This document shows, piece after piece, positions 5,681 to 54,007 of a stretch of DNA of 64,000 nucleotides. The stretch is taken from positions 37,129 to 101,128 of the forward strand of contig CALQYT010000002.1 in NCBI GenBank assembly GCA_943348815.1, in the 5' to 3' direction. Position 1 is the first letter of the stretch. Every line of letters begins with the position of its first letter. The translations under genes were made by a program, and so were the position numbers. The DNA is from Candidatus Nomurabacteria bacterium. GTDB taxonomy: Bacteria; Patescibacteriota; Minisyncoccia; Phycocordibacterales; SBAW01. A model generated the notes under the pieces. That model saw nothing but the letters and a program-made list of their open reading frames with translations. It did no database searches and was not told the origin of the DNA.

Positions 5681-5926
5681 ATGCATTACCTTTATATTCT
5701 TCGAAGTCTTGCGGACAAAAAGCATTACGTGGGAATAACCACTGACTTAGGTAAACGTCTTCGTTATCACAATGCAGGAAGGGTGCGTTCAACGAAAGCA
5801 AGAATCCCCTTTGAGCTTTTGTATAAAGAAGTTTATGCTACAAGAGTTGAGGCCCGGGCTCGTGAGAAGTACTTGAAGAGCTATAAGGGTTCAAAAGAGA
5901 AACTCACAATTCTGGAAAACCTCTAA
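5681..5926 (+). CDS. GIY-YIG nuclease family protein (YhbQ/UPF0213-like, 81 aa)
   Basis: Contains 'MHYLYILRS...KHYVGITTDLGKRLRYHN', the GIY-YIG core. The stop codon lies 3 nt before tRNA-Gln. Confidence 0.8.
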   Translation: MHYLYILRSLADKKHYVGITTDLGKRLRYHNAGRVRSTKARIPFELLYKEVYATRVEARAREKYLKSYKGSKEKLTILENL

Positions 5927-5929
5927 TTT

Positions 5930-6003
5930 TGGGGGATCGTCTAACGGTAGGACAGCGGCCTTTGAAGCCGTGAATCTAGGTTCGATTCCTAGTCCCCCAG
6001 CCA
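5930..6003 (+). tRNA. tRNA-Gln (anticodon UUG), CCA encoded
   Basis: Cloverleaf read by hand. The acceptor stem is TGGGGGA/TCCCCCA with U1:A72. The anticodon loop is CTTTGAA. The T-arm is GGTTCGATTCC. Discriminator G is followed by CCA. Confidence 0.85.
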
Positions 6004-6023
6004 GTTAAAGTAGATTAAAAAAC

Positions 6024-6641
6024 ATGAGCAAAAAACAAATCTTAATGATCCATGGCGGAATGACTTTTAAAAACCAAAAGGATTATTTGCATTACCTAAA
6101 AACAAAAAAAGTTTCCGCAAAGAAGAGGCAGTATTGGGAAGCTGATCTTGAAGAGAGGTTGGAAAAAAAGTTTGAAATCATAAGACCTCGCATGCCTTTG
6201 CAAGATAATGCAAAGTATCGTGACTGGAAGATTCTCTTTGAAAGATACACACCCCTTCTCAAGAAAGACTACATTCTGATAGGTTCTTCGCTCGGGGGAA
6301 TTTTCTTGGCACAATATTTGTCAGAACACAAAATGTCTAAGAAGGCCTTGTCAGTATATCTAGTATGCGCACCTTTCGATAGCGACATTCCGACGGAAGA
6401 TCTTGTCGGCGGTTTCAAACTTAGGGGTGATTTATCTTTGTTGGAAAAGAACTGTAGAAATTTGTACCTGATGTTTTCTAAAGACGACGACGTAGTGCCG
6501 GTCTCGCACGCGGAGAAATATAGAAAGAGACTAAAAAATGCGAAGATCTTGGTCTATAAAGGAAAGAAAGGACATTTCACTGTTTCTAAATTCCCCGAAA
6601 TCATCGGCCTAATTAAAAAAGACGTTTTGCTAAAGGTATAA
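6024..6641 (+). CDS. Alpha/beta hydrolase, serine hydrolase family
   Basis: Contains the 'GSSLGG' nucleophile elbow. The coding sequence is markedly AT-rich compared with its neighbours. Confidence 0.6.
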   Translation: MSKKQILMIHGGMTFKNQKDYLHYLKTKKVSAKKRQYWEADLEERLEKKFEIIRPRMPLQDNAKYRDWKILFERYTPLLKKDYILIGSSLGGIFLAQYLSEHKMSKKALSVYLVCAPFDSDIPTEDLVGGFKLRGDLSLLEKNCRNLYLMFSKDDDVVPVSHAEKYRKRLKNAKILVYKGKKGHFTVSKFPEIIGLIKKDVLLKV

Positions 6642-6648
6642 TCAGAAA

Positions 6649-6972
6649 ATGCCGAGCCAAGTTATTTTTCTCCTCCTATTGTTCGTTGCGGTTGCGTTAG
6701 AAACTATCGCCGACATTTTGTTTAAGGCGTCGTACCTTCAAAATCGTTCAGTCTTAATTGTTGCGGGAGTCGTTTTGTACACTGTAGGGACGGTCATATG
6801 GGCGCTCTCGTTGCGCTATGAGTTTCTGTCAAAAGCAATTTCTATTTTTACGGTCTTAAATCTGATTGCGGTACTCTTAGCGGGCTTTGTTATTTTTAAC
6901 GAACATCTTTCATTACTAAACAAAGTAGGCATTGGTTTGGGGATTATCAGTGTGATTTTGATGCAGCTTTAG
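6649..6972 (+). CDS. Small 4-TM membrane protein, SMR/EamA(DMT)-like
   Basis: 107 aa with four hydrophobic helices. The first helix carries 'ETIADILFK'. Confidence 0.45.
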   Translation: MPSQVIFLLLLFVAVALETIADILFKASYLQNRSVLIVAGVVLYTVGTVIWALSLRYEFLSKAISIFTVLNLIAVLLAGFVIFNEHLSLLNKVGIGLGIISVILMQL

Positions 6973-6983
6973 CTACGTAAATT

Positions 6984-7727
6984 ATGCAAATCATAAAAAC
7001 AAAAAGTTTTGAGATAGCGGTATATGTCAAAGGAGATCCGCGGTCATCCAAACTCGCCATTGTTATACCCGGTAGACTAGATACCAAAGACTACATTCAT
7101 AACACTAGCCTTGTAGATCTTTTGGCAGACAAAAATTATTTTGCCCTGTCTTTTGACCCGCCGGGAACGTGGGAGAGCTCGGGTGATATAGATTTGTATA
7201 CGACAACCAACACTATCAAGGTGGTTGATGAACTTATAGAATATTTTGGTAATAAACCTACGCTGCTTGCGGGTCACAGCAGGGGTGGGACGGTTGCGAT
7301 GCTTGTGGGGCCAACCAATCCGTATGTCACGCACATAATCCCAATTTTTTCGCACCCTGGAGCGCCAAGCGACCCGGAACCCGAGCGTGTAGTGGCTGGA
7401 AAGCTCATAAGTTATCGAGATCTTCCTCCGGGTACAGAAAAGACAAAAGAGCAGAAGAAATTCGAGCTGCCGCTTAGCTACTTTGAAGATGGGGCGCGGT
7501 ATGATGCATTGCCAGGGTTAAAAACTTACACGAAACCAAAACTTTTCTTTTTTGGGGCGCTCGATGTCATGAATACGCCTGATGGGGTAAAAGAAGCTTT
7601 TGATGCAAGCGCAGAACCAAAAGAAATCTGCGGTATAGAGTCTGAACATGATTATCGTCTGAGAGCTGAAGCTGTACGAGAAGTGAATAGCAAAATAGGG
7701 AAGTTTTTAGAAAATTTTACCTGGTAA
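6984..7727 (+). CDS. Alpha/beta-fold hydrolase
   Basis: Contains a 'GHSRGG' nucleophile motif. Length 247 aa. Confidence 0.6.
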   Translation: MQIIKTKSFEIAVYVKGDPRSSKLAIVIPGRLDTKDYIHNTSLVDLLADKNYFALSFDPPGTWESSGDIDLYTTTNTIKVVDELIEYFGNKPTLLAGHSRGGTVAMLVGPTNPYVTHIIPIFSHPGAPSDPEPERVVAGKLISYRDLPPGTEKTKEQKKFELPLSYFEDGARYDALPGLKTYTKPKLFFFGALDVMNTPDGVKEAFDASAEPKEICGIESEHDYRLRAEAVREVNSKIGKFLENFTW

Positions 7728-7740
7728 ACCTCTTTCGTTT

Positions 7741-8232
7741 ATGACCTACCACCCAACTGTAGAAAAAATAAAAAGCCTGCTTATTGAAAACGGGTATTGG
7801 TTTGAGACGTTTGAACATGAGCCGGTGCGCACGAGCGAGGAGGCTGCAAAGATACGGATAGGGTACACCCTCGAACAAGGCGCAAAGGCTATTATTGCCC
7901 GGGTAAAAGAGCTCGGCGTCGGCAAAAAGTTTGTTATGTTGGTAATGCCCGCGAATAAAAAATTTGATCCGGCCAAAATTAAAAGCAATTTAGGATTGAT
8001 TGATATTAGATTTGCCACCGAGCCAGAAGTTACAGAAATTACCAATGGGGTATTACCGGGCGGCGTGCCCCCGTTTGGAAATTTGTTTAACCTGCAAGTA
8101 TTTGCAGACAAAACGCTGTTTGATAACGAAAAAATAGTATTTAACGCCGGCGACCGCAGCTACTCTATTGCGATGAAATCAGCCGACTATCAGAAGATTG
8201 TTGTCCCGACCGTAGCAGACATTTGCCAATAG
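7741..8232 (+). CDS. YbaK/ProX-type aminoacyl-tRNA deacylase domain protein
   Basis: Typical YbaK-like domain. Contains '...GVLPGGVPPFGNLF...'. 163 aa. Confidence 0.7.
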   Translation: MTYHPTVEKIKSLLIENGYWFETFEHEPVRTSEEAAKIRIGYTLEQGAKAIIARVKELGVGKKFVMLVMPANKKFDPAKIKSNLGLIDIRFATEPEVTEITNGVLPGGVPPFGNLFNLQVFADKTLFDNEKIVFNAGDRSYSIAMKSADYQKIVVPTVADICQ

Positions 8233-8261
8233 AAAATTTTGATGTTATAGTTGGCCTATCT

Positions 8262-8594
8262 ATGGCCGACTTTAAACGGGGCGGGTTTGGGAAGGGCAAA
8301 TTTGGCGGTGCGCCGCGGCGCGAGTCGTCGGGCCCGGTGGTGCTGCACCAAGCTATTTGTGCGCAGTGCCAAAAAACCTGCGAGGTGCCTTTTCGCCCCA
8401 ACGGCAAAAAGCCGGTCCTCTGCCGCGACTGCTTTGGCGGCGCTAAGTTTGAAGGCTCTCAGCGCAAAGAGCGCCATGTGCCTCGTCCAAACTCTCATTT
8501 CGACTCTCGCCCCGACAATGTAGCCGCACAGATTGCCGAACTCAACGCAAAAATTGATGTGCTTACCCGCTTGGTCAAAGACCTCGCCAACTAG
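8262..8594 (+). CDS. CxxC-x17-CxxC zinc-ribbon protein
   Basis: The sequence 'CAQC' + 17 residues + 'CRDC' is an exact C-x2-C-x17-C-x2-C arrangement. The N-terminus is Gly-rich and basic. The Met at 8262 is preferred over the 8223 start, which overlaps the upstream gene. Confidence 0.55.
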   Translation: MADFKRGGFGKGKFGGAPRRESSGPVVLHQAICAQCQKTCEVPFRPNGKKPVLCRDCFGGAKFEGSQRKERHVPRPNSHFDSRPDNVAAQIAELNAKIDVLTRLVKDLAN

Positions 8595-8614
8595 CTTTTC
8601 CGCTGATTGCGGTT

Positions 8615-9859
8615 ATGTACGACCTCATAGTTATTGGCGGTGGTGCATCGGGGCTCATGGCGGCAGGGCGCGCGGCCGAGCTGGGAGCGCGCGTATTGGT
8701 GCTCGAAAAAAATAAACGCGTCGGCGAAAAGTTGCGTATATCGGGTGGCGGGCGGTGCAATATTACTAACGCCGAGCCCGACCCGCGGGTGCTGCTTCGT
8801 GCCTACGGCAAAGCCGAGCAATTTTTGTATTCGCTCTTTGCACAATTTGGCGTCAAAGATACGTTTACTTTTTTTGAGTCGCGCGGTTTGCCATTGGTGG
8901 TGCAAGCTAGGCAGCGCGCCTTCCCCAAAAGCGAAAAGGCTGCCGATGTGGTCAATACCTTGCTCGCGTACACGAAGAAGGGGAATGTAACTATCAAAAC
9001 CAGTGCGGCCGTAACACGGGTACATTCGGGCCCCAGCGGCATCGAGGGTGTGTCGGTGGGTGCCGAAACCTATCAGGCCAAAAACTATTTGTTTGCAACC
9101 GGCAGTGTCTCGCACCCGGAGACCGGTTCGAGTGGCGACGGCTTTGCCTGGCTGCGTACGCTTGGCCACACGGTGCGCAAGCCAACGCCAACGATAGTGC
9201 CGCTGTCGGTTAAAGAGGAGTGGGTCAAGCGGCTTGCGGGCGTGTCGATGGCGGGGATGAAAATAACTTTTTTTGTTGAGGGGGTAAAAGCGTTTGCCGA
9301 GAGCGGCAAAGTATTATTTACGCACTTTGGGGTTTCGGGCCCACTCATTTTAAATAGTGCACACAAAGTTGCCGATCTTTTGCACGATGGGGCCGTGACG
9401 GCAACTATCGATGCGTACCCCAAAGTTGATTTGGGTGCTCTTGAAAAAAAGATACTCGCTACGTTTGATGCCAATAAAAATAAAACACTGAAAAATGTGC
9501 TCAAAGAGTTTATCCCCGAGGGTACGACCGCCGGGATTGCCCATTTGGTCGGTGCCGAGATAGATATAAATAAAAAAGTACACTTGGTAAGCAAAGAGGA
9601 GCGTAAACGCCTGGCCTCTTTGCTCAAAGCGCTCCCACTTACGATTAATGGGCTTATGGGCTTTGACCGCGCGGTGGTTGCCGATGGTGGCGTGCCACTA
9701 AGCGAAGTGGACATGCGCACCATGCAGTCAAAAAAAATCCCCAACTTATATCTCACCGGTGACCTCCTCGACATAAACCGCCCCTCAGGCGGCTACTCAC
9801 TGCAGCTGTGCTGGTCATCGGGTTTTGTCGCAGGGACGCATAGTGCAAAGCAAAATTGA
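8615..9859 (+). CDS. HI0933/BaiN-family FAD-dependent flavoprotein
   Basis: Contains 'MYDLIVIGGGASGLMAAGRAAELG' (Rossmann fold) followed by 'RISGGGRCNITN'. Confidence 0.8.
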   Translation: MYDLIVIGGGASGLMAAGRAAELGARVLVLEKNKRVGEKLRISGGGRCNITNAEPDPRVLLRAYGKAEQFLYSLFAQFGVKDTFTFFESRGLPLVVQARQRAFPKSEKAADVVNTLLAYTKKGNVTIKTSAAVTRVHSGPSGIEGVSVGAETYQAKNYLFATGSVSHPETGSSGDGFAWLRTLGHTVRKPTPTIVPLSVKEEWVKRLAGVSMAGMKITFFVEGVKAFAESGKVLFTHFGVSGPLILNSAHKVADLLHDGAVTATIDAYPKVDLGALEKKILATFDANKNKTLKNVLKEFIPEGTTAGIAHLVGAEIDINKKVHLVSKEERKRLASLLKALPLTINGLMGFDRAVVADGGVPLSEVDMRTMQSKKIPNLYLTGDLLDINRPSGGYSLQLCWSSGFVAGTHSAKQN

Positions 9860-9867
9860 GATAAACA

Positions 9868-9898
9868 AAAAACCGGATGCATTTTAGCGCTTCCGGTT
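9868..9898 (+). terminator. Hairpin terminator after the flavoprotein gene
   Basis: AACCGGA...TCCGGTT stem immediately after the stop codon. Only a weak U-tract follows. Confidence 0.4.
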
Positions 9899-10150
9899 GA
9901 ATTTATTGAACACAGTCGGGCATCATCGCAACATAATTTTCCTTCTTACCGTCGAGGATGATCAGGCCCTGTTTGCTGGAACGGGGAGGGAATCCGACTC
10001 GCGTCTCACCAAAATCCGCAGCAGCAACGGCGCCTCGGCGGTGTGATGGGAAGCATGTATCCTCCTGCCGCATATTGCGGCTCTAGCAGAGACTCACCAG
10101 GGTCGAATATAGCACAAAACAAATGGCTGTTTTGTACGTCCGGGAGTATT

Positions 10151-10178
10151 AAAAAGAGCACCCCCGAAAAGGTGCTCT
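10151..10178 (-). terminator. Rho-independent terminator for the minus-strand gene ending at 10183
   Basis: Read on the minus strand, GAGCACC-loop-GGTGCTC is followed by TTTTT. Confidence 0.6.
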
Positions 10179-10182
10179 GAAG

Positions 10183-10695
10183 CTAGCGCGGCTCTACGAT
10201 GATGCGGATCATTCCTTCGTCTAGATCGCGCTCAAGCATTGCCCGCATCCACCTCTCGAAGCCGGTGTTGTACTCCCGGCGGCGACCGGCCACCATGAGA
10301 CAGCCATAGGTTGCGGCTGCACCAAAGTGGATTTGGATATTCTGTCGCGGGGTTTCGCTCGCACCGATGATGGTGTAATCGTTTCCGCATTTCTCTTCGT
10401 ACAGCTGGATGCGGAAGCCGACCGGTCCATCTTCGCGTATCCTGCCAAAGTAGGGTAGATCTCCACTCGCCGGGCACTCTCCCTTCTCGCCAAATGGGTT
10501 CTCCGGCATTATTTCGCGGAAGGCGTGGTCCGAAGAGTCCCGCACCACCGCAAAGTTGAAACGCTCGCCACTGGGCAGAAGTTGAGCGAAGGCGGCGTAG
10601 GTGCGGACAAACTTGCGTCTACCTTGCTTGCGGGGCAGCTCATAGAGAAGGGCTTTTCTCATAGTGAGCTTACGGGTGATGTTTATCACAATCAC
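10183..10695 (-). CDS. Hypothetical protein (possible L,D-transpeptidase-like fold)
   Basis: 170 aa. Contains 'IQIHFGAAATYGCLMV', a His...Gly-Cys arrangement reminiscent of YkuD/Tlde1. Not a confident match. Confidence 0.4.
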   Translation of the reverse strand: MIVINITRKLTMRKALLYELPRKQGRRKFVRTYAAFAQLLPSGERFNFAVVRDSSDHAFREIMPENPFGEKGECPASGDLPYFGRIREDGPVGFRIQLYEEKCGNDYTIIGASETPRQNIQIHFGAAATYGCLMVAGRRREYNTGFERWMRAMLERDLDEGMIRIIVEPR

Positions 10696-10779
10696 GGGTC
10701 GCTCCCTGGCTGGAGTGTTGAAGAGCTAGTTACTTCGTCACCACTGTATACGAAATAGGTACTTTGGTATACTGTCTCT

Positions 10780-11127
10780 ATGAAAAAATTTGTGGTTATC
10801 TATCGCGTGCCGGCCGAGACCATGCAGGAGTGGAAGAGCAAGACCCCGCCCGAGGAGATGAAAAAGCAGGGCGAAGAGTTGGGAGTCAAGATGATGGCCT
10901 GGACGAAGAAGAACGAGAAGTCGTTTGTTGGCCAAGGTCTGCCGCTTGGCAAAAACACTCGGGTCACGAGCGCGGGTGCACAAGCGGTGACCAACGATCT
11001 TAACTATATGTGTGTAGTCGAGGCAGAGTCGGCCGATGCGGTAGTGGCGATGTTTAAAGATAACCCGCACTTCGATATACCAACCTCTTACGTCGATATT
11101 ATGGAAGTCCCACACATGGGGATGTAG
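10780..11127 (+). CDS. Hypothetical small protein
   Basis: 115-aa ORF with a consensus-like -10/-35 and an RBS upstream. No motif recognised. Confidence 0.4.
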   Translation: MKKFVVIYRVPAETMQEWKSKTPPEEMKKQGEELGVKMMAWTKKNEKSFVGQGLPLGKNTRVTSAGAQAVTNDLNYMCVVEAESADAVVAMFKDNPHFDIPTSYVDIMEVPHMGM

Positions 11128-11129
11128 GC

Positions 11130-11546
11130 ATGAAAATAATGATTATTGGGAGCATGCGGTTTGCTAAAGAAATGCTCGAGACAAAAGAAAAACTCGAGCA
11201 ACTAGGGCATACGGCCGAAGTTCCGTGTGATACCGATTTGCACGTGCAAGATCCAAATTTGCGCAACGATTTTGAGCGCGACGCCGCCCATGTCAAAGAA
11301 AATAACATTATGCACCGTTGTTTTGAGTTGGTGGCTGAGAGCGATGCGGTGTTGGTACTCAACCACAAACATAATAACGTTGATGGGTATGTTGGCGCTT
11401 CAGCACTTATGGAGGCAGGACTCGCGGCCTACTTGGGCAAGAAACTGTTTTTACTCAACCCAATCGCTTCTACCGAGCGATACCGCCATGAGTTCGATGT
11501 GTTAGGGGGCGTATGTATCAACGGTGATCTGATCAAAATTGCTTAA
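11130..11546 (+). CDS. Nucleoside 2-deoxyribosyltransferase-like protein
   Basis: 'MKIMIIGSMRFA' at the start and 'DAVLVLNHKHNNVDGYVGASALMEAGLAAYLGKKLFLL' resemble the NDT/PF05014 fold pattern. Confidence 0.45.
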   Translation: MKIMIIGSMRFAKEMLETKEKLEQLGHTAEVPCDTDLHVQDPNLRNDFERDAAHVKENNIMHRCFELVAESDAVLVLNHKHNNVDGYVGASALMEAGLAAYLGKKLFLLNPIASTERYRHEFDVLGGVCINGDLIKIA

Positions 11547-12282
11547 TATGAAACAAAAAAAGATTTTTATTTATGGCAAACACGCGGTGAGCGAAGCCTT
11601 GCGGCATGCACCACAGTTGCTGCGCACCGTGTACCTATCGCCTTTGATGAAAGACAAAGAGATTTTGTCGCTCATTAATCGTGCAAATATAAAAACCGAA
11701 AAGCTCGACCCCCGCAAAGCAACCTCGCAGGTGGAGGGCAACGCGCCGCACCAGGGGATTATTGCGCTCATGTCGGTGTTTGGATTGGCGCTCCCGTTTG
11801 AGGATTTTATAAAAGACTTCAATCCTGCCGGCTCGCTGCTTGTCTACTTAGACGGAATACAAGACCCACACAATGTTGGTGCGATTATCCGCGCCGCAGC
11901 AGCCTTTGGTGCCAGCGGGGTACTCTTGCCCGGGCATGGCCAGTCGCCGATAACCGCCGCCGTGATAAAAGCTTCTGCGGGTGCGGTGTTTAGCGTCCCG
12001 CTTGTTAGCGTCACTAACACACAGCAAACACTCGCCGAATTGCGCCGCAAAGGAGTTGCAGTATACGGTCTTGCGGGAGGGGGCTCGAGCATTGTTAAAG
12101 AAGAATTTACAAAACCAACGTTGTTTATTTTGGGTAATGAATCCACCGGCATTTCACCTGCAGCGCGCGCGGTGTGCGACAAAATGTTGGAGATTCCTAT
12201 TTCTAAAAAAGTAGAGTCACTCAATGTGGCAAGTGCCGCCACCGCGGCGCTCTATGCCTGGAGCAGCAAAAACTCCTCTTAA
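11539..12282 (+). CDS. rlmB: 23S rRNA 2'-O-ribose methyltransferase, SpoU/TrmH family (RlmB-like)
   Basis: Contains 'GIQDPHNVGAIIRAAAAFGASGVLLP', the SPOUT motif. Length 247 aa. Confidence 0.8.
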   Translation: MLNMKQKKIFIYGKHAVSEALRHAPQLLRTVYLSPLMKDKEILSLINRANIKTEKLDPRKATSQVEGNAPHQGIIALMSVFGLALPFEDFIKDFNPAGSLLVYLDGIQDPHNVGAIIRAAAAFGASGVLLPGHGQSPITAAVIKASAGAVFSVPLVSVTNTQQTLAELRRKGVAVYGLAGGGSSIVKEEFTKPTLFILGNESTGISPAARAVCDKMLEIPISKKVESLNVASAATAALYAWSSKNSS

Positions 12283-12349
12283 TGCTGAGTTCAGGCTCAT
12301 CTGTTAGCCTAAATCTCGGTCGAGCATTATCCAAATATCACTGAGATAT

Positions 12350-12484: not shown

Positions 12485-12559
12485 CGAACCGCAAACGGCC
12501 CTGTCTTCCGGGGCCGTTATGCGCTCAGAGTGTAGTATTATCACTTAACCAAAATTTTT

Positions 12560-12712: not shown

Positions 12713-12731
12713 CGAGAGTTATAGTGAGTGC

Positions 12732-25700: not shown

Positions 25701-26357
25701 TCATTTGAGCGAGGTCGAACCTCGCTCACTTCCGTAACCTATCCATCCTTGTATTTCTTTTTTGAACTCTTTGGGCGTAGGAAAATAATTCGGCAACACA
25801 GTTTTGTTTAATATTTTTCCTTGGGGACGCAATATGCCAGCAAGATCTGAGTAGCTTGAATATGGATAGTCGTCTAAAGTAACCCTTTCCTTTGGATTAA
25901 TTGGATTAAGGTGTATGTAAGCAATTAAATATTTTAAATATCGATCTTCTCCTGCATGTACAGATTTAAATTTTCCTTGAAACAATGCGCCAGTACGTTC
26001 GTTTTTGGTATTGAAATACATGGTGTATGCTGTTACAAGTTTTTGCATAAATCGACTGATACCGTTATCAACTTGTTGATGTAGTAAAAGATGGAAATGG
26101 TTAGGCATAAGACAGTAGCTAACAATAGCGACCAAAGGCTCGTTTCGGTCAACTTCGAGCGCACGAGTGAGTAAGGTCGAGCCTCGTTCAGAGCGGCGGA
26201 TATTTTCTATCTTTATAGATTCGGAACTGTTGGCTAAATACAAGAGGGAAAGAAAACGTTCGTAATCAGTTTTTGTAAGAAAAATTTTGCGTTTTTCGGT
26301 GCCGCGATTATAGATGTGGTAAAACTCGCCCTTACTTAGAGGAGGTCTATTTCCCAT
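25701..26357 (-). CDS. Y1 HUH transposase, IS200/IS605 TnpA / REP-associated tyrosine transposase (RAYT)-like
   Basis: Contains 'GEFYHIYNRG', the HUH motif 'YCLMPNHFHLLL', and a catalytic Tyr region 'IAYIHLNPINP'. Confidence 0.75.
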   Translation of the reverse strand: MGNRPPLSKGEFYHIYNRGTEKRKIFLTKTDYERFLSLLYLANSSESIKIENIRRSERGSTLLTRALEVDRNEPLVAIVSYCLMPNHFHLLLHQQVDNGISRFMQKLVTAYTMYFNTKNERTGALFQGKFKSVHAGEDRYLKYLIAYIHLNPINPKERVTLDDYPYSSYSDLAGILRPQGKILNKTVLPNYFPTPKEFKKEIQGWIGYGSERGSTSLK

Positions 26358-26395
26358 ATCAATACTTTACCATGAGCGAGGTCGAACCTCGCTCA
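25706..26395. mobile_element. IS200/RAYT-type mini-element: transposase gene bracketed by two identical 23-bp palindromic hairpins
   Basis: The palindrome TGAGCGAGGTCGAACCTCGCTCA occurs at 25706-25728 and at 26373-26395. The two copies lie 3 bp and 15 bp from the ends of the transposase ORF. Confidence 0.6.
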
Positions 26396-39582: not shown

Positions 39583-39628
39583 CTTTTTATTTTGACTAAT
39601 TTCCGCTATAGTTTCCGTGCGCACCCTT

Positions 39629-39672
39629 AGTCCCGACGCTTGGGTCGGGATCCCGACAGAATCGTCGGGACT
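39629..39672. repeat. Nested palindrome, a potential cruciform or double hairpin
   Basis: Outer stem AGTCCCGACG (39629-38) pairs with CGTCGGGACT (39663-72). The inner perfect palindrome is GTCGGGATCCCGAC (39644-57). Confidence 0.45.
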
Positions 39673-39695
39673 CAGAGATAGGAAGTGTGCCAAAG

Positions 39696-39769
39696 GCACC
39701 CTTAGCTCAGTTGGTTAGAGCGCACCCTTCACACGGGTGAGGTCGGGAGTTCGAGCCTCTCAGGGTGCA
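39696..39769 (+). tRNA. tRNA-Val (anticodon CAC), no encoded CCA
   Basis: Acceptor GCACCCT/AGGGTGC, D-arm TAGCTCAGTTGGTTAGAGC, anticodon loop TTCACAC, T-loop TTCGAGC. Confidence 0.85.
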
Positions 39770-39794
39770 CTGCTTCGCCAAGGCTTCGCAGTGC
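39770..39794 (+). repeat. 25-nt tRNA-trailer repeat, copy 1 (CTGCTTCGCCAAGGCTTCGCAGTGC)
   Basis: Begins immediately after the tRNA-Val discriminator. Together with the tRNA 3' end it forms GCACTGC...GCAGTGC. Confidence 0.6.
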
Positions 39795-39812
39795 GAGCAC
39801 AGGCAAGCGATT

Positions 39813-39883
39813 CGGGCTGTAGTATACCGGTAGTACGCGCGCTTCGGGTGCGTGAAGACTGGGTTCGATTCCCAGCAGCCCGA
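39813..39883 (+). tRNA. tRNA-Pro (anticodon CGG), no encoded CCA
   Basis: C1:G72 acceptor CGGGCTG/CAGCCCG, anticodon loop TTCGGGT, T-loop TTCGATT. Confidence 0.8.
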
Positions 39884-39909
39884 CAAAGTGATATAGTTTT
39901 TTGGCTTAA

Positions 39910-39980
39910 GGGCCCATAGTAAAGTGGTATTACGCGTCATTCGCATTGACGAGGCTCGAGTCCGATTCTCGATGGGTCCA
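39910..39980 (+). tRNA. tRNA-Ala (anticodon CGC), no encoded CCA
   Basis: Acceptor GGGCCCA/TGGGTCC with G3:U70. Anticodon loop TTCGCAT. Confidence 0.8.
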
Positions 39981-40005
39981 CTGCTTCGCCAAGGCTTCGC
40001 AGTGC
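39981..40005 (+). repeat. 25-nt tRNA-trailer repeat, copy 2
   Basis: Identical to copy 1. Begins right after the tRNA-Ala(CGC) discriminator. Confidence 0.6.
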
Positions 40006-40020
40006 AGGCACAAGAAGCCA

Positions 40021-40050
40021 GCAAAACTCCCCAAATGGGGAGTTTTGCTT
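40021..40050 (+). terminator. Rho-independent terminator
   Basis: AAAACTCCCC-AAAT-GGGGAGTTTT perfect hairpin followed by GCTTT. Confidence 0.6.
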
Positions 40051-40106: not shown

Positions 40107-40346
40107 ATGCACTATGTGTATATTCTCCAAAGTCAGGTGGATGGAAGTTTATATGTGGGTGTCACCGAGGATATAAAACGTCGTTTTGTCGAACACAATA
40201 ATGGTAATGCTAAATATTCAAGCTCGAAACGGCCTTATAAACTGAAATGGTTTTGTGCATTCCCAACGAAACAAAAGGCACTTATCTTCGAAAGATATCT
40301 AAAACACGGTTCCGGTTTTGCTTTTGCACGAAAACATTTAATTTAA
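40107..40346 (+). CDS. GIY-YIG nuclease family protein (YhbQ/UPF0213-like, 80 aa)
   Basis: 'MHYVYILQSQVDGSLYVGVTEDIKRRFVEHNNG'. The ORF-track call 39924-40346 runs through tRNA-Ala. The real start is the Met at 40107. Confidence 0.8.
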   Translation: MHYVYILQSQVDGSLYVGVTEDIKRRFVEHNNGNAKYSSSKRPYKLKWFCAFPTKQKALIFERYLKHGSGFAFARKHLI

Positions 40347-45230: not shown

Positions 45231-45237
45231 CGCTACA

Positions 45238-46020: not shown

Positions 46021-46987
<967 letters not shown>

Positions 46988-46993
46988 ACGTTT

Positions 46994-47667: not shown

Positions 47668-49216
47668 TTTTATCGAACAATTTAAAAAAGAAATTGAAGG
47701 CTTTATCCCGACCGAGCGGCCTAAAAATGGCGGCGTAGTGCTGCGCGTGGGTGACGGTGTTGCCGAGATAGAGGGGCTCGAGGGCGCAGCCATGTCGGAG
47801 ATGGTCAAGTTTGAGGTGTCGCACGGCAAACAACTGAAAGATGCAATCCAAACCCGCGATGTGTTTGGCGTGGTACTTAACCTCGAAGAGACCTCGGTAC
47901 GCGTGATTATTTTAGGCGACAGTTCCACGGTAACAGAGGGGATGGGTGTTACCCCGATGGGTCAGGTACTCTCTATCCCGGTCGGTGATGAGTTGCTTGG
48001 TCGTGTGGTGAGCGCACTTGGCGAGCCGCTTGATGGTTTGGGCGCGATTAAATCGACAAAAAAGAATGCAATCGAACGCGAGGCCTATGGTGTGATGGAC
48101 CGCGAGTCGGTAAAGCAGCCTCTGCACACGGGTATTAAAGCGATCGACTCGATGATCCCCATAGGTCGCGGCCAGCGTGAGTTGATTATCGGCGACCGCT
48201 ATACCGGCAAAACGACCGTTGCTATCGACACCATCCTCAACCAAAAAAGCGAGCCGAAAGAAAGCCGCCCTGTTTGTATTTATGTTTCGGTGGGGCAAAA
48301 AGAAAGTAAAACCGCACGTCTGGTGCAACAACTTAAAGAAGCGGGCGCGATGGAGTACACGATTGTGGTTGATGCCGGTGCTTCGGCTCCGGCGGCGCTG
48401 CAATACCTAGCACCATTTGCGGGTGCCGCTATTGGGGAATTCTTTTTGGACAGCGGTCGCGATGCGCTCGTAATTTATGACGACCTTTCTAAACACGCGG
48501 TAGCGTATCGCCAACTCTCGCTCTTGCTGCGCCGCCCCCCGGGCCGCGAGGCATACCCGGGCGACGTGTTTTATCTCCACTCGCGCTTGCTTGAACGTGC
48601 GGCAAAGCTCAATAAAGAAAAAGGGGGTGGATCACTGACGGCTTTGCCGATTATCGAAACGCAGGAAGGCGACGTCTCGGGTTACATCCCAACGAACGTC
48701 ATCTCTATTACGGACGGACAGATCTTTTTGGAGACTGATTTGTTTAACAAAGGTATGCGCCCGGCAATCAACGCCGGTATCTCAGTGTCACGCGTCGGTT
48801 CATCGGCACAAACCAAAGCGATGAAGAAAGTCTCGGGCCGTATCAAACTCGAGTTGGCGCAATTCCGCGAGTTGGAGGCCTTTATGCAGTTTGCACAAGA
48901 CCTTGATGCGGACACTAAAAAGCGCATCGACTCCGGCCAGCGCATGATGGCAATCTTGCGCCAAAAAAACGGCAACCCGTTGTCGTTTGAGAATCAGGCA
49001 ATCGTCATTTATGCCGCGGTTAATGGCTACTTGGCCAAGGTGCCGGTAGCGCGCGTGCCGGAGTATGAAGAAAAGATGCTGCAATTTATTGAGGCAGAGG
49101 CTAAATCTATCCCTGAGTCTATTGCACGCTCTAAAGAGATTGCCACACAGACCGAAGAGGAGTTGAAGGTGATGCTCAAAAAATTTGAAGAGACACATCC
49201 AGATTTATTTCAATAA
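47660..49216 (+). CDS. atpA: F0F1 ATP synthase subunit alpha
   Basis: P-loop 'GDRYTGKTT'. 518 aa. Confidence 0.95.
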   Translation: MSNFIEQFKKEIEGFIPTERPKNGGVVLRVGDGVAEIEGLEGAAMSEMVKFEVSHGKQLKDAIQTRDVFGVVLNLEETSVRVIILGDSSTVTEGMGVTPMGQVLSIPVGDELLGRVVSALGEPLDGLGAIKSTKKNAIEREAYGVMDRESVKQPLHTGIKAIDSMIPIGRGQRELIIGDRYTGKTTVAIDTILNQKSEPKESRPVCIYVSVGQKESKTARLVQQLKEAGAMEYTIVVDAGASAPAALQYLAPFAGAAIGEFFLDSGRDALVIYDDLSKHAVAYRQLSLLLRRPPGREAYPGDVFYLHSRLLERAAKLNKEKGGGSLTALPIIETQEGDVSGYIPTNVISITDGQIFLETDLFNKGMRPAINAGISVSRVGSSAQTKAMKKVSGRIKLELAQFRELEAFMQFAQDLDADTKKRIDSGQRMMAILRQKNGNPLSFENQAIVIYAAVNGYLAKVPVARVPEYEEKMLQFIEAEAKSIPESIARSKEIATQTEEELKVMLKKFEETHPDLFQ

Positions 49217-49219
49217 TCT

Positions 49220-50137
49220 ATGGCACTTAAACAAATAAAATCTAAGATCCTGGCAATGAAAAAGTCGCAAACCGTCACCAAAGCGATGGAGGCGGTCTCG
49301 GCTGCCAAAATGCGCAAAAGCCAACTCAAAGCTCTGAACGGCCGCGCGTACGCTAAAGCGGCCGTTTCTGTCCTCTCCCGAGTATCCGGGAGCCGGCTTT
49401 TTTCGAGTTTGCCGCTCACGACGGAGCGTAGTGTTACTGCCGCACTCTACATTGTGATCACGAGCGACAAAGGTCTCGCCGGGGCACTCAACTCAGGGGT
49501 GTTGCGGACGGCGGTGGCCGACATACAAGCCTCGGGACTTAAGAAAGATGTCGTTTCGATTATTGCGGTAGGCAAGAAAGCAAGTGACTTTTTTGAGCGG
49601 CGCGGTTTTCATGTCGTACATCACGCCAACACCGACCACATTTCCTCCGAGTTTATCGACACGGTGGTCCGGCAGGCGATACAACGCTTTTTGCTCGGGG
49701 CGGTTGACCTCGTGAAGATCGCATACCCCAACTTAATTTCAACGTTTGAACAGCGCCCAACCATGAGGACGATATTGCCGCTTACGCTCGGCGAATTACA
49801 AAAAGTAGTTAGTGATATTGTTCCGGCTCGTGGTGTAGCAACCTCTGCGTTGGTTGAATCCACAAAAAAAGTAGTACAGTCCTATAGTCTTGAGCCTTCA
49901 GAAGAGGAGATATTAGAAATGATATTGCCCAAACTCGTTTCTATTTTTGTATATCACGCACTGCTCGAGTCGCAAGCATCCGAGCACTCGGCGCGTATGG
50001 TGGCGATGAAGTCGGCCTCGGACAAAGCAGGGGAGATGCAAGAAAGTTTGACGCTGAAGTTTAATAAAGTGCGGCAAGCAGCTATTACGCGCGAGGTGAG
50101 CGAAATTACCGGCGGTATGGAAGCAATGGCGAGCTAA
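49220..50137 (+). CDS. atpG: F0F1 ATP synthase subunit gamma
   Basis: 'MALKQIKSKILAMKKSQTVTKAMEAVSAAKMRK' and the C-terminal helix 'ITREVSEITGG'. Confidence 0.9.
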   Translation: MALKQIKSKILAMKKSQTVTKAMEAVSAAKMRKSQLKALNGRAYAKAAVSVLSRVSGSRLFSSLPLTTERSVTAALYIVITSDKGLAGALNSGVLRTAVADIQASGLKKDVVSIIAVGKKASDFFERRGFHVVHHANTDHISSEFIDTVVRQAIQRFLLGAVDLVKIAYPNLISTFEQRPTMRTILPLTLGELQKVVSDIVPARGVATSALVESTKKVVQSYSLEPSEEEILEMILPKLVSIFVYHALLESQASEHSARMVAMKSASDKAGEMQESLTLKFNKVRQAAITREVSEITGGMEAMAS

Positions 50138-50141
50138 CTAA

Positions 50142-51530
<1,389 letters not shown>

Positions 51531-51626
51531 CAAGTATCAAACAAATATAAAAGTATAAAAACTTAAATATTTAAAATTTGTTACTTATTTGTCACTTGAT
51601 ACCTGATACTTGATACTTACAAAATT
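51531..51626. repeat. AT-rich spacer with short direct repeats (AACAAGT x3, GATAC(C)T x3) arranged as an imperfect inverted repeat
   Basis: Seen between atpD and atpC: '...gtaacaagtaacaaataacaagtatcaaacaaat...atttgttacttatttgtcacttgatacctgatacttgatactt'. Confidence 0.4.
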
Positions 51627-51863
51627 ATGCATTTAGTAATCGCCAAAGTAGATGAAGTTTTATTTGAGGGCGAGGCACACTCGCTGACGGTCCCCGGCAC
51701 AGCTGGCGAGATGACCGTGCTCGGCGAGCATATGCCGCTTATTACGACGCTCAAAGCGGGCGAGTTGCGCGTGCATCTAACCGTGCATGATGAACCAAAA
51801 ATATTTCCGGTCGAAAAGGGTGTCCTCGAAGTCCGCCGCGACGGGGCTACGGTGATTTTGTAA
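51627..51863 (+). CDS. atpC: F0F1 ATP synthase subunit epsilon, beta-sandwich domain only (78 aa)
   Basis: 'MHLVIAKVDEVLFEGEAHSLTVPGTAGEMTVLGEHMPLIT'. The C-terminal helical hairpin is absent. Confidence 0.75.
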   Translation: MHLVIAKVDEVLFEGEAHSLTVPGTAGEMTVLGEHMPLITTLKAGELRVHLTVHDEPKIFPVEKGVLEVRRDGATVIL

Positions 51864-51922
51864 ACAAAAACCCACCCAATAGTTTAGAAGGGTAGGTTTG
51901 TAGCTTTAACCGCCTGATGCGG

Positions 51923-52378
51923 TCAGACGTATTCGGCGCGTTCCTGGCGTTCCTTCTCGACCTTGTTGGTCGGCTTGGCCGGTAGGGTGAGGATGGTCGC
52001 TTCCTGACCAGCGAAGAGCGTGGTGAGCAGCACGATGTTACCGTCAGGGAATTCCAACGCATCGTGGTGGCGATCCTTGTGTTGCTGGTCCACCTGGATG
52101 AACGTCGCGACGCGCTCGGTGGCCTTAGGCGGCACGCCGATGATCCGCTTGGTCGCGCTCACCATCGCTTCGATCGGATTGGTGGTGACGGTACGGATCG
52201 CCTTATCGAAGCTCAGCTCAGTGCCGGGTAACACGCAGATAGCCGTAGCGCTGGCAGCCGCACCCTTGTCGTTGGTGGCGCGAAAGCCGTTGGTGCCGGT
52301 CATGAAGTTATGCGTCGTAATCTTGTCACCGACCACTGCGGGACGGGACTTGACACCCTTGAGGCTGTAATCGCACAT
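51923..52378 (-). CDS. Hypothetical protein (152 aa), high-GC
   Basis: Starts 'MCDYSLKGVKSRPAVVGDKITTHNF'. GC content is markedly above neighbouring genes. Confidence 0.4.
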   Translation of the reverse strand: MCDYSLKGVKSRPAVVGDKITTHNFMTGTNGFRATNDKGAAASATAICVLPGTELSFDKAIRTVTTNPIEAMVSATKRIIGVPPKATERVATFIQVDQQHKDRHHDALEFPDGNIVLLTTLFAGQEATILTLPAKPTNKVEKERQERAEYV

Positions 52379-52573
52379 GGGGGTAGCCTTTCCTGTTGAT
52401 TTCAGACTATGGAGACGCGAACTGAGCCCTCCGTACTTAAGGGTACGCTCCTCTTTTAAAAACGCAAGCAAGAAAAAGCTTTTTGGTTTTATATGGATTT
52501 TCTTTACACCCAGAAACGTTTCTGCAATAGTTGATACGGAAGTCGGATTAACCACCAACCCCAGGGGGTAACC

Positions 52574-53392
52574 ATGGGTGTGATGTCGATCTCGGCAGCA
52601 ACCGTCAAACCAACGGCTGCAGTCGAATTCAAGATTGGCTGGGGCGCGGTGGGCGAGCAGTTTGCCACGGCGCTTTTTGAAGTTGAACCTCAGCTACGAG
52701 AGATCATCGAGCGGCAAGAGGTATCGATCGAGCCCCTGAAGAAGGCGTTTGCAATGGTGTTTCAATATACCACTGCGGTGCAGAGCGTACGCTTGGTCGG
52801 CAAGGCGGACTTCAGATCGTCGATGACTGATGAGACTCGAGGCGCGATCCTCAAGGATCAATCGATAGCAGATAACAGGGTTACTTTGCGAGTGATCCTG
52901 CACAAGAACTTCTATGTCGACCTGCGACTGGAACTTTCCCCGCCGGGAGTGCTCGCGCGTTCGGTGGTTCAGATGAATGACGGAGTGCGGGACTATGCCC
53001 CAGAACCTGAAGTAAATGCACTTCTTAAAGCCGATCAGGAGCGTTTTGATCGCCAAACTGAGGCGCTCAAAGATCTGTTGATTGAGTACTCCGCTACAAC
53101 GCTAGAAGACTATGTGCTAGTGGCGCTTGAGGCGTTCCTCAAGTCTGTCCGCGAAAGCAAAGTAAACGGTAAGCGTCGCACCGCTTTCTCTCGGGCACGT
53201 ATTGCTCAGGTGTTGACGCGAAGCTACAAGGAAATCTGTCCGACCGTCACCGCAGGCGAAAAGGCAGCCGAGCAGCTGATTGAGAAAGGGTTGGTACAGT
53301 CGGTGGAACGCAAGCACTCCAAACACACGCCCTCCAACCTGATTACCTTTACCCCGGCCGGCACGCAACGGCTTTTGGAGTTGAGGAAGTAG
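52574..53392 (+). CDS. Hypothetical protein (272 aa), high-GC, with a possible C-terminal winged-helix region
   Basis: Divergent from 51923-52378. Followed by a strong terminator. Confidence 0.4.
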   Translation: MGVMSISAATVKPTAAVEFKIGWGAVGEQFATALFEVEPQLREIIERQEVSIEPLKKAFAMVFQYTTAVQSVRLVGKADFRSSMTDETRGAILKDQSIADNRVTLRVILHKNFYVDLRLELSPPGVLARSVVQMNDGVRDYAPEPEVNALLKADQERFDRQTEALKDLLIEYSATTLEDYVLVALEAFLKSVRESKVNGKRRTAFSRARIAQVLTRSYKEICPTVTAGEKAAEQLIEKGLVQSVERKHSKHTPSNLITFTPAGTQRLLELRK

Positions 53393-53400
53393 TTCGAGAG

Positions 53401-53422
53401 GCAGCACCGTGCTGCCTTTTTT
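53401..53422 (+). terminator. Rho-independent terminator
   Basis: GCAGCACCGTGCTGC followed by CTTTTTT. Confidence 0.65.
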
Positions 53423-53651
53423 GTTTTATAAAAACAGTGGCGGCGCCCATAAATGGACGCCGCTGGGGTAGATAGGGCATTCGAGGCTGCTCCGCACCTT
53501 GGTAAGAAACCCGCAATGGGTTGCCAACTACATGACACGCTCTCCTTGTGTCTAGGCGGTATATTGTACTCTTTATATTTTATTTGTCAAGTTTAGAAAA
53601 TTATGTAAAATAAGGAGGAAAAAAGGGCCCGCCCGACACACTAGAACGGCC

Positions 53652-53933
53652 TTGCAAGACGACATGTACTACGTCTATTTGTTGAAAAGTAGAAAAGATA
53701 AAAAATTGTACACGGGATACACTGACAACTTGCGTCGTCGTCTTGCAGAACATACCTCTGGTAAAAATATTTCTACCCGTTCACGTTTACCTCTCGATTT
53801 GATATATTACGAAGCGTACTTGTCGAAGGCTGACGCGATATCCCGAGAGCAGCGTCTCAAATCGTCACTTGGTGCTCGAACTGCACTTAATCGCAGAATA
53901 GGGGATAGCCTTCGACTAGGCCGTTCAGTGTGA
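53652..53933 (+). CDS. GIY-YIG nuclease family protein (YhbQ/UPF0213-like)
   Basis: 'MYYVYLLKSRKDKKLYTGYTDNLRRRLAEHTSG'. The stop TGA lies 1 nt before tRNA-Ala(GGC). Confidence 0.8.
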   Translation: MQDDMYYVYLLKSRKDKKLYTGYTDNLRRRLAEHTSGKNISTRSRLPLDLIYYEAYLSKADAISREQRLKSSLGARTALNRRIGDSLRLGRSV

Positions 53934-53934
53934 C

Positions 53935-54007
53935 GGGCCCGTAGCTCACTTGGTAGAGCGCTTCCATGGCATGGAAGAGGTAACCGGTTCGATCCCGGTC
54001 GGGTCCA
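53935..54007 (+). tRNA. tRNA-Ala (anticodon GGC), no encoded CCA
   Basis: Acceptor GGGCCCG/CGGGTCC with G3:U70. D-arm TAGCTCACTTGGTAGAGCG. Anticodon loop ATGGCAT. T-loop TTCGATC. Confidence 0.85.

Follow-up and report, generated by a model that had tools for sequence, protein, structure and literature searches.

Minimal GIY-YIG nuclease genes at tRNA loci of a Nomurabacteria contig as candidate miniature cassettes of stable-RNA genes

What are three genes for the same minimal nuclease doing beside tRNA genes in one short stretch of a bacterial genome? The stretch is 64,000 nucleotides (nt) of a Candidatus Nomurabacteria contig (CALQYT010000002.1, positions 37,129 to 101,128 of the forward strand), hereafter called the window; coordinates below are positions in the window, and L-numbers denote loci from other genomes. 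Three of its open reading frames (ORFs), G1, G2, and G3, encode small GIY-YIG proteins. The original prediction took them for a family of selfish or tRNA-associated elements or, alternatively, for nucleases engaged in the maintenance or processing of tRNA loci. A census of other genomes, the clustering of the copies by tRNA type, and the intact catalytic residues support the first idea, while the second explains much less of the anatomy of the loci. We consider it probable that the genes belong to miniature, homing-type selfish cassettes of ∼300 bp, which carry only a minimal GIY-YIG nuclease of the Slx1/UPF0213 type and occupy stable-RNA genes. The genes reside, co-oriented, inside stable-RNA transcription units, with a partial duplication that preserves one intact copy of the RNA gene; from sequence, we infer that the nucleases are active and the cassettes mobile.

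The three genes and their products

The three ORFs and the tRNA genes next to them are as follows.

5681-5926, + strand: G1, an 81-amino-acid GIY-YIG (UPF0213/Slx1-like) gene (Pfam PF01541, E = 2e-16)
5930-6003, + strand: tRNA-Gln(UUG), intact (ARAGORN; Rfam tRNA model, 64 bits)
39910-39981, + strand: tRNA-Ala(CGC), 5' of G2 (ARAGORN, Rfam)
40107-40346, + strand: G2, a 79-amino-acid GIY-YIG gene (PF01541, E = 3e-18)
53664-53933, + strand: G3, a GIY-YIG gene of 89 amino acids from its ATG (PF01541, E = 2e-16)
53935-54008, + strand: tRNA-Ala(GGC), intact (ARAGORN; Rfam tRNA model, 59.8 bits)

ARAGORN and Rfam were concordant on all six tRNA genes in the window, and both agree with the predicted partners (Gln-UUG, Ala-CGC, and Ala-GGC). 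Each ORF is co-oriented with its own tRNA gene. The G1 stop codon lies 3 nt from tRNA-Gln(UUG) and the G3 stop codon 1 nt from tRNA-Ala(GGC), as first predicted; the third distance, given as 126 nt, is in fact 125 nt, from the 3' end of tRNA-Ala(CGC) to the start of G2. For G3, an in-frame TTG at 53652 is an alternative start that gives 93 amino acids. A six-frame hidden Markov model scan found no fourth GIY-YIG copy in the window.

All three proteins match PF01541 at 60 to 66 bits (cut-off, 22.6 bits), and their pairwise identity is 34 to 40%. Residues Y5, Y16, G18, R26, H30, and E62 (G1 numbering) are invariant among them, and the catalytic Tyr/Tyr/Arg/His/Glu set is intact; we take the spacing of these residues to be that of I-TevI Y6/Y17/G19/R27/H31/E75. 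The best profile matches in the PDB were 1zg2 (E = 5e-17) and 1ywl (4e-11), followed by SLX1 chains (∼1e-4). As minimal, single-domain proteins of 79 to 89 amino acids without a C-terminal Asn, G1 to G3 belong to the Slx1/UPF0213 clade, which by definition lacks that residue (PMC1564403). Because the C-terminal Asn is missing from the whole clade, its absence here is no argument against activity. Of the Arg, Glu, and Asn that the original prediction regarded as catalytic, Arg and Glu are intact in all three proteins, and the absent Asn is inapplicable as a criterion for this clade.

GIY-YIG was the only significant Pfam domain; one weak, overlapping match to T5orf172 (PF10544) accompanied it, and no known transposase domain (DDE, HUH, or serine or tyrosine recombinase) was found in the Pfam scan of G1 to G3. 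The proteins stop just past the catalytic core and have no C-terminal DNA-binding domain such as those of I-TevI, I-BmoI, or Seg. The NCBIfam model TIGR01453 matched residues 4 to 40 only, at 20 to 22 bits against a cut-off of 56 bits. Nothing in the PADLOC defense library scored better than E = 0.004 for any of the three, and no defense link was found there; PHROGs gave one weak match to a GIY-YIG homing-endonuclease family, for G2 only. We rejected a tRNA group I intron with an encoded endonuclease, as Rfam gives uninterrupted tRNAs only and the ORFs lie outside complete tRNAs. At gathering thresholds, Rfam found the six tRNAs in the window and neither an intron family nor any other RNA family.

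A census of GIY-YIG genes at stable-RNA genes

A scan of species-representative genomes yielded 80 loci, mainly from Patescibacteria; Bacteroidota, Planctomycetota, Chlorobiota, and other groups contributed the rest. With the window included, there were 97 GIY-YIG ORFs, 95 of which were evaluable. A co-oriented tRNA gene starts between −97 and +150 nt from the stop codon in 52 of the 97 ORFs, and within +20 nt of it in 47 of those 52. The downstream tRNAs represent 15 tRNA identities, all 52 lie on the same strand as the ORF, and 47 are retained at a stricter ARAGORN threshold. The control consisted of the other ORFs of at least 60 amino acids at the same loci, and the criterion was a co-oriented tRNA start between −100 and +150 nt of the stop codon. 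Under this criterion, 52 of the 95 evaluable GIY-YIG ORFs had a downstream tRNA, compared with 64 of 3,540 other ORFs (1.8%; odds ratio, 66; Fisher's exact test, p = 3e-57), which is the strong enrichment that the original prediction called for. Six tRNAs in 64 kb might suggest that the adjacency is due to chance in a tRNA-rich, gene-dense small genome. The contrast was measured within the same loci, and the census rules this out; the co-orientation of 52 out of 52 pairs and the 47 stop codons within 20 nt of a tRNA also speak against it.

The association is not confined to downstream tRNAs. In a further 10 GIY-YIG ORFs, a tRNA ends no more than 150 nt 5' of the ORF. Several ORFs overlap their tRNA by 10 nt; at L038, for instance, the TAG stop codon is formed by nt 8 to 10 of the tRNA. 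At L051 and L064, the ORF and its flanking stem occupy hairpin loops inside the RNase P RNA gene (Rfam), and at L082 the ORF adjoins the RNase P RNA gene at its 5' end. Two more ORFs lie 145 and 134 nt 3' of a tmRNA gene (L056 and L057, respectively; Rfam). Overall, ∼68 of the 97 GIY-YIG ORFs are tied to stable-RNA genes. We found no description of a link between cellular UPF0213 genes and tRNA or other stable-RNA genes in the open-access literature.

At L036 (∼4900 to 5400), the surroundings of the cassette resemble RNase P RNA (e.g., GGGAGTGAAACGG and CTAGATAAATGGTCATCG), which is its probable host; the left repeat also occurs there a second time, on its own (CCCCCCACCAATTTT), and Rfam makes no RNase P call there at the gathering threshold. 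Cassette insertions of this kind may explain RNase P RNAs that are "missing" from such genomes (cf. PMC8172020).

The copies also sort by target. Among 53 nearest-neighbor protein comparisons between different genomes, 26 shared the amino acid identity of the associated tRNA, a number reached in 0 of 1,000 permutations. Each window copy groups with copies at the same tRNA type in other genomes and not with its window paralogs, and the flanking protein genes within such clusters are usually not shared. The original prediction saw three diverged copies with a common GIY-YIG core and no recent tandem duplication, and this view stands: we rejected such a duplication because the copies are only 34 to 40% identical and each has closer kin in other genomes. 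G1, G2, and G3 probably represent three old, separate lineages of one large cassette family. The ratio of nonsynonymous to synonymous substitution rates (dN/dS) was 0.06 to 0.14 wherever dS was measurable.

The closest known parallel to this tRNA linkage in a GIY-YIG gene is SegB, a two-domain protein of ∼220 amino acids from phages that belongs to the HEase/UvrC lineage and has a DNA-binding region. In phages T4 and T6, it is a free-standing homing endonuclease encoded in a tRNA gene cluster, and its recognition site contains the conserved T-loop motif of tRNAs (PMC2330249). SegB homologs colocalize with tRNAs (p = 1e-50) and generate tandem repeats of tRNA plus segB, and catalytically dead mutants lose the ability to spread or to amplify (PMC13096335). 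The repeats are joined by microhomology that the tRNA 5' end shares with the 3' end of the gene (PMC2330249; PMC13096335). The family described here is similar in that a GIY-YIG gene sits among tRNAs with significant colocalization (52 of 95 versus 64 of 3,540), and the ORF/tRNA overlaps of about −10 nt and a tRNA-ORF array at L008 recall the tandem repeats. In contrast, the window genes are Slx1/UPF0213 cores of 79 to 89 amino acids in cellular genomes, set apart from SegB by domain architecture. Further, hairpin-interrupted pseudo-tRNA copies, inverted repeats, and RNase P RNA or tmRNA hosts, which we describe below and above, are not described for SegB in PMC2330249 or PMC13096335.

Anatomy of the units

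At tRNA genes, the units follow one rule, tRNA(1..y)-ORF-tRNA(x..end), in which one tRNA copy is complete and the redundant copy bears GC-rich hairpins, single or double; in the alternative form, inverted repeats bracket the ORF. In the window, G1 is of a hairpin type, G3 is of an inverted-repeat type, and G2 is of a type that follows tRNA-Ala(CGC). The G1 unit comprises the following parts upstream of the ORF.

5638-5653, + strand: segment A (ATATTGGGGGATCGTC), 4 leader nt plus a copy of tRNA-Gln nt 1 to 12; repeats 5926-5941 with 94% identity
5654-5667, + strand: hairpin insert H (CCTGGCCGGGCAGG), 14 nt, exactly between the two repeat blocks, in the D-arm region of the upstream copy
5668-5681, + strand: segment B, a copy of tRNA-Gln nt 12 to 25; 100% direct repeat with 5941-5954

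The upstream copy therefore spans positions −4 to +25 of tRNA-Gln, split by the 14-nt hairpin, and the final base of segment B is the A of the G1 ATG. Four relatives of G1 were found on contigs (63 to 72% amino acid identity). All four are followed by tRNA-Gln, at gaps of 13, −15, 4, and 3 nt, and all four have the same module, A(1-12)-hairpin-B(13-25). L168, L169, and L171 carry a 30-nt double hairpin at this position, of which the 14-mer in the window is a deletion derivative. Substitutions that distinguish the tRNA-Gln of each genome (nt 3, 5, 6, 7, and 16) are mirrored in its own pseudo-copy. The pseudo-copy is thus not drifting and is kept matched by recurrent reinsertion, gene conversion, or selection.

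The predicted RNA fold of the G1 unit is not more stable than that of shuffled sequences (z = −0.7), and consensus promoter and terminator scans found nothing near G1. At L169 (1113 to 2187), the G1-type unit adjoins a hicA/UPF0150 (HicAB-like) pair, and a second GIY-YIG gene of 96 amino acids lies 68 nt past the tRNA-Gln. Just 3' of tRNA-Gln in the window, positions 6001 to 8000 have a GC content of 0.416, compared with ∼0.51 elsewhere. The genes there are a Ser-hydrolase-like one, whose relatives have no synteny with this locus, and those for a small membrane protein and an alpha/beta hydrolase; this segment may be a small acquired island.

The same layout recurs throughout the family. Of the 52 loci where a tRNA lies downstream, ∼35 have a significant upstream tRNA copy that starts at nt −5 to +1, and at least 17 loci have the exact order A(1..x), hairpin, B(x+1..y), then 0 to 20 nt, then ATG. 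The hairpin is typically 30 nt long and made of two 15-nt hairpins (e.g., TCCGCCAAAGGCGGA), with 15-mers of the form TCCGCC-NNN-GGCGGA conserved across phyla. It interrupts the copy at nt 11 to 13, 20 to 27, or 33 to 37 or in the T-loop, and it may stand in place of a whole arm: at L038 the anticodon arm is replaced in this way, and in the tRNA-Pro arrays of Bacteroidota (L006, L008, and L020) it is the D-arm. In a mirror class (L014, L032, and L016), an intact tRNA and the ORF are followed by a hairpin-preceded 3' fragment of the same tRNA; in a variant of this class, the D-arm of the downstream copy is replaced. Duplication lengths are 6 to 8 bp at intergenic sites, 7 to 12 nt at tRNA 5' ends, and 25 to >70 nt in the other units.

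In the arrays of L008 (4880 to 5850) and L006 (4897 to 5804), tRNA-Pro, the ORF, a D-arm-replaced tRNA-Pro, and the ORF again follow in tandem. The replacement hairpin is CCCCGCC..GGCGGGG, and the two complete ORF copies of L008 are identical. At its default threshold, ARAGORN takes these hairpin-substituted Bacteroidota copies as tRNAs; at 110%, it no longer does so.

An ORF placed between two partial copies of a host gene, one of which completes that gene, is also known from the mORFs of fungal mitochondria. There, a LAGLIDADG or GIY-YIG ORF inserts into an essential gene (atp6 in Allomyces; atp6, atp9, cox2, and nad3 in Glomus) and brings a duplicate gene end, so that the gene stays functional and the displaced native end remains as a pseudo-copy beyond the ORF (PMC3630166). 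What is duplicated in fungi is a protein-coding gene's 3' end, and the divergence of the copies, which are only 63.5% identical for atp6 in Glomus, indicates horizontal transfer (PMC3630166). G1, and the family at large, resemble mORFs in this arrangement. They differ in that the hosts are RNA genes, the 5' part is usually the one duplicated, and hairpins are inserted in the redundant copy. Moreover, the window copies are 94 to 100% identical and covary with the resident tRNA, and they do not qualify as foreign copies in the mORF sense.

Two other kinds of elements share parts of this anatomy. Integrase-borne islands and prophages likewise target tRNA and tmRNA genes and carry a piece of the RNA gene that restores it. 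Such islands measure kilobases, have a gene for a tyrosine integrase, and bring a duplicate of the tRNA's 3' part. In contrast, the units here are ∼300 bp long with a single ORF and no integrase, are strictly co-oriented, and mostly duplicate the 5' part of the tRNA (as at G1 and G3). Double-hairpin elements (DHEs) and GC clusters of fungal mitochondria, as well as REP/MITE-type repeats, are short, GC-rich, dispersed hairpins found in non-essential parts of structured RNAs and in intergenic DNA. Here, on the other hand, 29 of 47 tandem GC-rich double hairpins in ∼640 kb (62%) fall within 160 nt of a GIY-YIG ORF, although such neighborhoods account for only 8% of the sequence, and the hairpins occupy arm or loop positions in the redundant copies of the tRNA.

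Exactly tRNA(1..y)-ORF-tRNA(x..end) would result if a fragment x..y recombined by a single crossover, and host recombination could in principle have built the units with no role for the nuclease in movement. Small circles of ORF plus tRNA fragment might integrate by a Campbell-type event, or tRNA copies might cross over unequally; the passenger would then be retained through its tie to an essential tRNA or through an action as a toxin or addiction module. The tandem arrays of L008 suit this account, and a direct repeat split by a hairpin would block excision. Nonetheless, we regard it as very unlikely. The 7 to 25 nt of homology are short for a RecA-dependent crossover, and passive carriage leaves unexplained both why a nuclease gene should be the sole cargo in hundreds of genomes and why duplications end at structural positions of the tRNA. 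It also finds no convincing defense or toxin family match among the proteins.

The G3 unit is built differently, with the following parts around the ORF.

53625-53631, + strand: GGGCCCG, a duplicate of tRNA-Ala(GGC) nt 1 to 7, read from the sequence, directly 5' of the left inverted repeat
53631-53652, + strand: left inverted repeat (GCCCGACACACTAGAACGGCCT), from an inverted-repeat alignment with 53918-53938 (z = 9.3 versus shuffles)
53918-53938, + strand: right inverted repeat (AGGCCGTTCAGTGTGACGGGC), covering the G3 stop codon and tRNA nt 1 to 4

Taken alone, the 7-nt duplicate is not significant; the same layout, with 7 to 12 nt of a tRNA 5' end that begin exactly at +1, occurs at L015, L055 (twice), L066, and L076. 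G3 and L015_5001 are 69% identical, with a dN/dS of 0.09. In the related Kaiserbacteria genome L015, the G3-type cassette lies 5' of tRNA-Ala(CGC), whereas in the window it lies 5' of tRNA-Ala(GGC) and the tRNA-Ala(CGC) has no such cassette upstream.

In the predicted RNA fold of the G3 unit (z = −4.5), the ORF is closed by a stem formed from the arms of the inverted repeat, and the upstream GGGCCC pairs with the 3' end of the tRNA. Because the 5' copies are identical, thermodynamics cannot choose between folds, and we do not count this fold toward a function at the RNA level. A stem-closed insertion of this type fits with tolerance inside structured RNAs, and inverted-repeat relatives are indeed found in RNase P RNA (L051, L064, and probably L036). 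The region upstream of the unit has three promoter matches where 0.7 are expected, among them a promoter-like 10/12 match on the + strand at 53584-53611, which is suggestive only. GC skew in the window is negative only at ∼54 to 60 kb, right after the G3/tRNA-Ala(GGC) unit, and positive elsewhere.

Terminal inverted repeats, found at G3 and ∼15 other ORFs but not at G1 or G2, raise the question of whether these units are cut-and-paste or copy-and-paste transposons, that is, autonomous insertion sequences of ∼300 bp with the GIY-YIG protein as transposase. Staggered cuts would then leave target duplications of 6 to 12 bp, and after insertion within the first 7 to 12 nt of a tRNA gene the duplication would regenerate the tRNA. 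Consistent with this, relatives with the ends CCCCCACACC...GGTGTGGGGG are flanked by direct duplications of 6 to 8 bp (GTTATC, GATAAC) at four intergenic sites, and the tRNA 5' end duplications measure 7 to 12 nt. Some of these relatives have an internal CATATAAT box 7 to 13 nt 5' of the ATG, and at L082 an ORF-less copy of the same inverted-repeat pair stands alone in the P12 helix of RNase P RNA. We nevertheless consider transposition of this kind quite unlikely. Units of the G1 and G2 types have no inverted repeats, duplications that range from 7 to >70 nt are unlike the product of one fixed staggered cut, and a random stagger would not be expected to start exactly at tRNA nt +1. In addition, we know of no GIY-YIG transposase.

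At L027 and L042, the right end of the inverted-repeat cassette and the target duplication (∼5255 to 5275) read GGGGGTTATCCACA, which contains a perfect DnaA-box 9-mer (TTATCCACA), and L049 has TTATTCACA at the corresponding site. This may reflect an insertion near an origin or a coincidence.

G2 closes a cluster of three tRNA genes that an ORF-less module opens. Besides tRNA-Ala(CGC), the features are as follows.

39621-39675, + strand: ORF-less module, tRNA-Val repeats around a double hairpin; ends 20 nt 5' of the real tRNA-Val
39621-39630, 39631-39670, and 39671-39675, + strand: its parts, namely, tRNA-Val nt 1 to 10, the hairpins, and tRNA-Val nt 11 to 15
39696-39770, + strand: tRNA-Val(CAC) (ARAGORN, Rfam)
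39813-39884, + strand: tRNA-Pro(CGG), same cluster (ARAGORN, Rfam)
39958-40012, + strand: tRNA 3' end plus trailer (CTGCTTCGCCAAGGCTTCGCAGTGC); a 55-nt direct repeat, 84% identical, with 39747-39801 after tRNA-Val

The 40-nt double hairpin of the module (TCCCGACGCTTGGGTCGGGA TCCCGACAGAATCGTCGGGA) is the sole tandem GC-rich double hairpin in the 64 kb, and a Saccharibacteria genome has the same stems, TCCCGAC/GTCGGGA, in a tRNA-Asn/GIY unit (L061). The module is an ORF-less version of the hairpin module of the cassettes. Such modules are rare: a scan of 68 tRNAs without a nearby GIY gene found ∼2 clear cases (L032 and L072), and the tRNA-Val module in the window falls below the threshold of that scan.

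G2 clusters with L015_5471, L048, and L060. At L048 and L015, tRNA-Ala(CGC) and the conserved trailer precede the G2-type ORF at 108 and 124 nt, respectively; L060 shares the trailer, with no tRNA called. The trailer could be a processing or terminator hairpin or a part of the G2-type unit. At L048, a hairpin-bearing pseudo-tRNA-Val and, after it, the real tRNA-Val lie 3' of the G2-type ORF, whereas in the window the pseudo-tRNA-Val and tRNA-Val instead open the cluster Val-Pro-Ala(CGC)-G2. This order might have arisen by cyclic permutation, if tandem amplification was combined with partial loss. Promoter and terminator matches around G2 are no more frequent than in shuffled sequence.

Between the tRNA cluster and G2, at 40020-40049, lies a perfect 13-bp hairpin (AGCAAAACTCCCCAAATGGGGAGTTTTGCT) that is terminator-like on the minus strand. 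Elsewhere in the window, an identical 23-nt perfect hairpin with a 10-bp stem (TGAGCGAGGTCGAACCTCGCTCA) occurs twice, at 25706-25728 and 26373-26395, 667 nt apart.

How the cassettes might work and what they would mean

A homing-type cassette could account for this anatomy as follows. The nuclease would cut the tRNA gene at structural positions, namely, the D-arm (about nt 7 to 13), the anticodon loop, and the T-loop; these are the sites at which duplications end or hairpins sit. The cassette would then spread by repair from the occupied copy, through either intron-less homing or insertion-duplication, and the duplicated segment would keep the essential RNA gene intact. Read-through from the promoter of the RNA gene might express the ORF, with RNase P freeing the downstream tRNA. 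In the redundant copy, the hairpin would either destroy the cut site or split the direct repeat and so prevent loss by recombination.

Several points weigh against this reading. Mobility is read from anatomy, and we infer the cut site, cleavage, and transfer alike. Sequence-specific homing is hard to picture for a core of 80 amino acids without a DNA-binding domain, although specificity might come from DNA structure or homology instead. The intact tRNA copy still contains the presumed target, which leaves self-immunity unexplained. G2 is the weakest case in the window: its signature consists of adjacency and the conserved trailer, and we found no significant downstream tRNA fragment or inverted repeats around it. 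The G1/tRNA-Gln neighborhood is partly syntenic in 3 of 5 genomes, and this partial synteny and the strong purifying selection fit long vertical residence or domestication as well as they fit active spread. Finally, no true empty site was found in a close relative. For G1, none could be defined among 80 relatives of the downstream gene (6024 to 6638) from a metagenome scan (59 to 75% amino acid identity). None of these has an upstream tRNA-Gln(UUG) or GIY gene, or synteny with either flank, and the only tRNA-Gln nearby is a Gln(CUG) on the opposite strand, at L145 and L149.

One alternative is a domesticated function, in which housekeeping, structure-specific Slx1-like nucleases would serve the host at very highly transcribed stable-RNA genes by resolving R-loops, stalled forks, or folded DNA or by processing, with the adjacency maintained for coexpression. 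The low dN/dS values (0.06 to 0.14) and the persistence of the G1/tRNA-Gln unit, with partial synteny, across relatives of 63 to 72% amino acid identity are as expected under this explanation. To our knowledge, classical UPF0213 members are single-copy and not located beside tRNAs. G1 to G3 belong to the same family as the stand-alone UPF0213 proteins BH0048 (1zg2), EF2693 (1ywl), and YhbQ of Escherichia coli, and after the first two of these, their closest solved structures are the SLX1 structure-specific nucleases. The clade is seen as one of vertically inherited repair enzymes, and it includes a fusion to a TrmH-like tRNA methyltransferase (PMC1564403). While that family is treated as a putative repair enzyme passed on vertically, the genes described here are multicopy, linked to stable RNAs, and marked by signatures of insertion. 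Paralogs in one genome are only 34 to 40% identical, and each is bound to one tRNA identity; the occupied tRNAs differ between related genomes, and most tRNAs have no such gene. The duplicated tRNA pieces with hairpin inserts, the inverted repeats with target duplications, the tandem tRNA-ORF arrays, and the cassettes inside RNase P RNA helices are hallmarks of insertion and not of an operon partner. We therefore judge a host function to be unlikely.

Duplication starts at +1 and the positions of the junctions would fit a flap- or junction-specific nuclease acting on folded tRNA-gene DNA, although this is speculation. More tentatively still than the cassette reading itself, a bare Slx1-like nuclease of 80 amino acids that reads DNA structure and not sequence might drive what would be the smallest autonomous mobile elements known in cells (∼300 bp), an idea we offer as possible yet doubtful. 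Its targets would be the cloverleafs and hairpins extruded from heavily transcribed stable-RNA genes, along with the element's own single or double hairpins. Cuts would fall at helix junctions (tRNA nt +1, 7/8, and 10 to 13), in the anticodon loop, and in the T-loop, and insertion would regenerate the RNA gene through the duplication. The hairpin-bearing pseudo-tRNA would then be no relic but a component of the element that acts in cis, and selection would keep it matched to the resident tRNA.

If the cassette reading is correct, a large branch of the UPF0213/YhbQ-like family, which is a very common family of "hypothetical" proteins, would be the engine of selfish elements and not the vertically inherited repair enzyme that it has been assumed to be. 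Among the elements that occupy tRNA, tmRNA, and RNase P RNA genes, the cassettes would form a new, minimal class without an integrase. The spare-piece strategy of fungal mORFs and SegB's life beside tRNAs would, moreover, prove widespread in cellular genomes and particularly frequent in Patescibacteria, which have reduced genomes considered to hold little junk. Such cassettes would explain pseudo-tRNA calls, for instance, the hairpin-substituted "tRNAs" accepted by ARAGORN, as well as the RNase P RNA genes of these genomes that are oversized or go undetected, and they may explain assembly breaks at tRNA loci. A nuclease of 80 amino acids with predictable cut sites could serve as a small structure-specific or tRNA-gene-specific nuclease.

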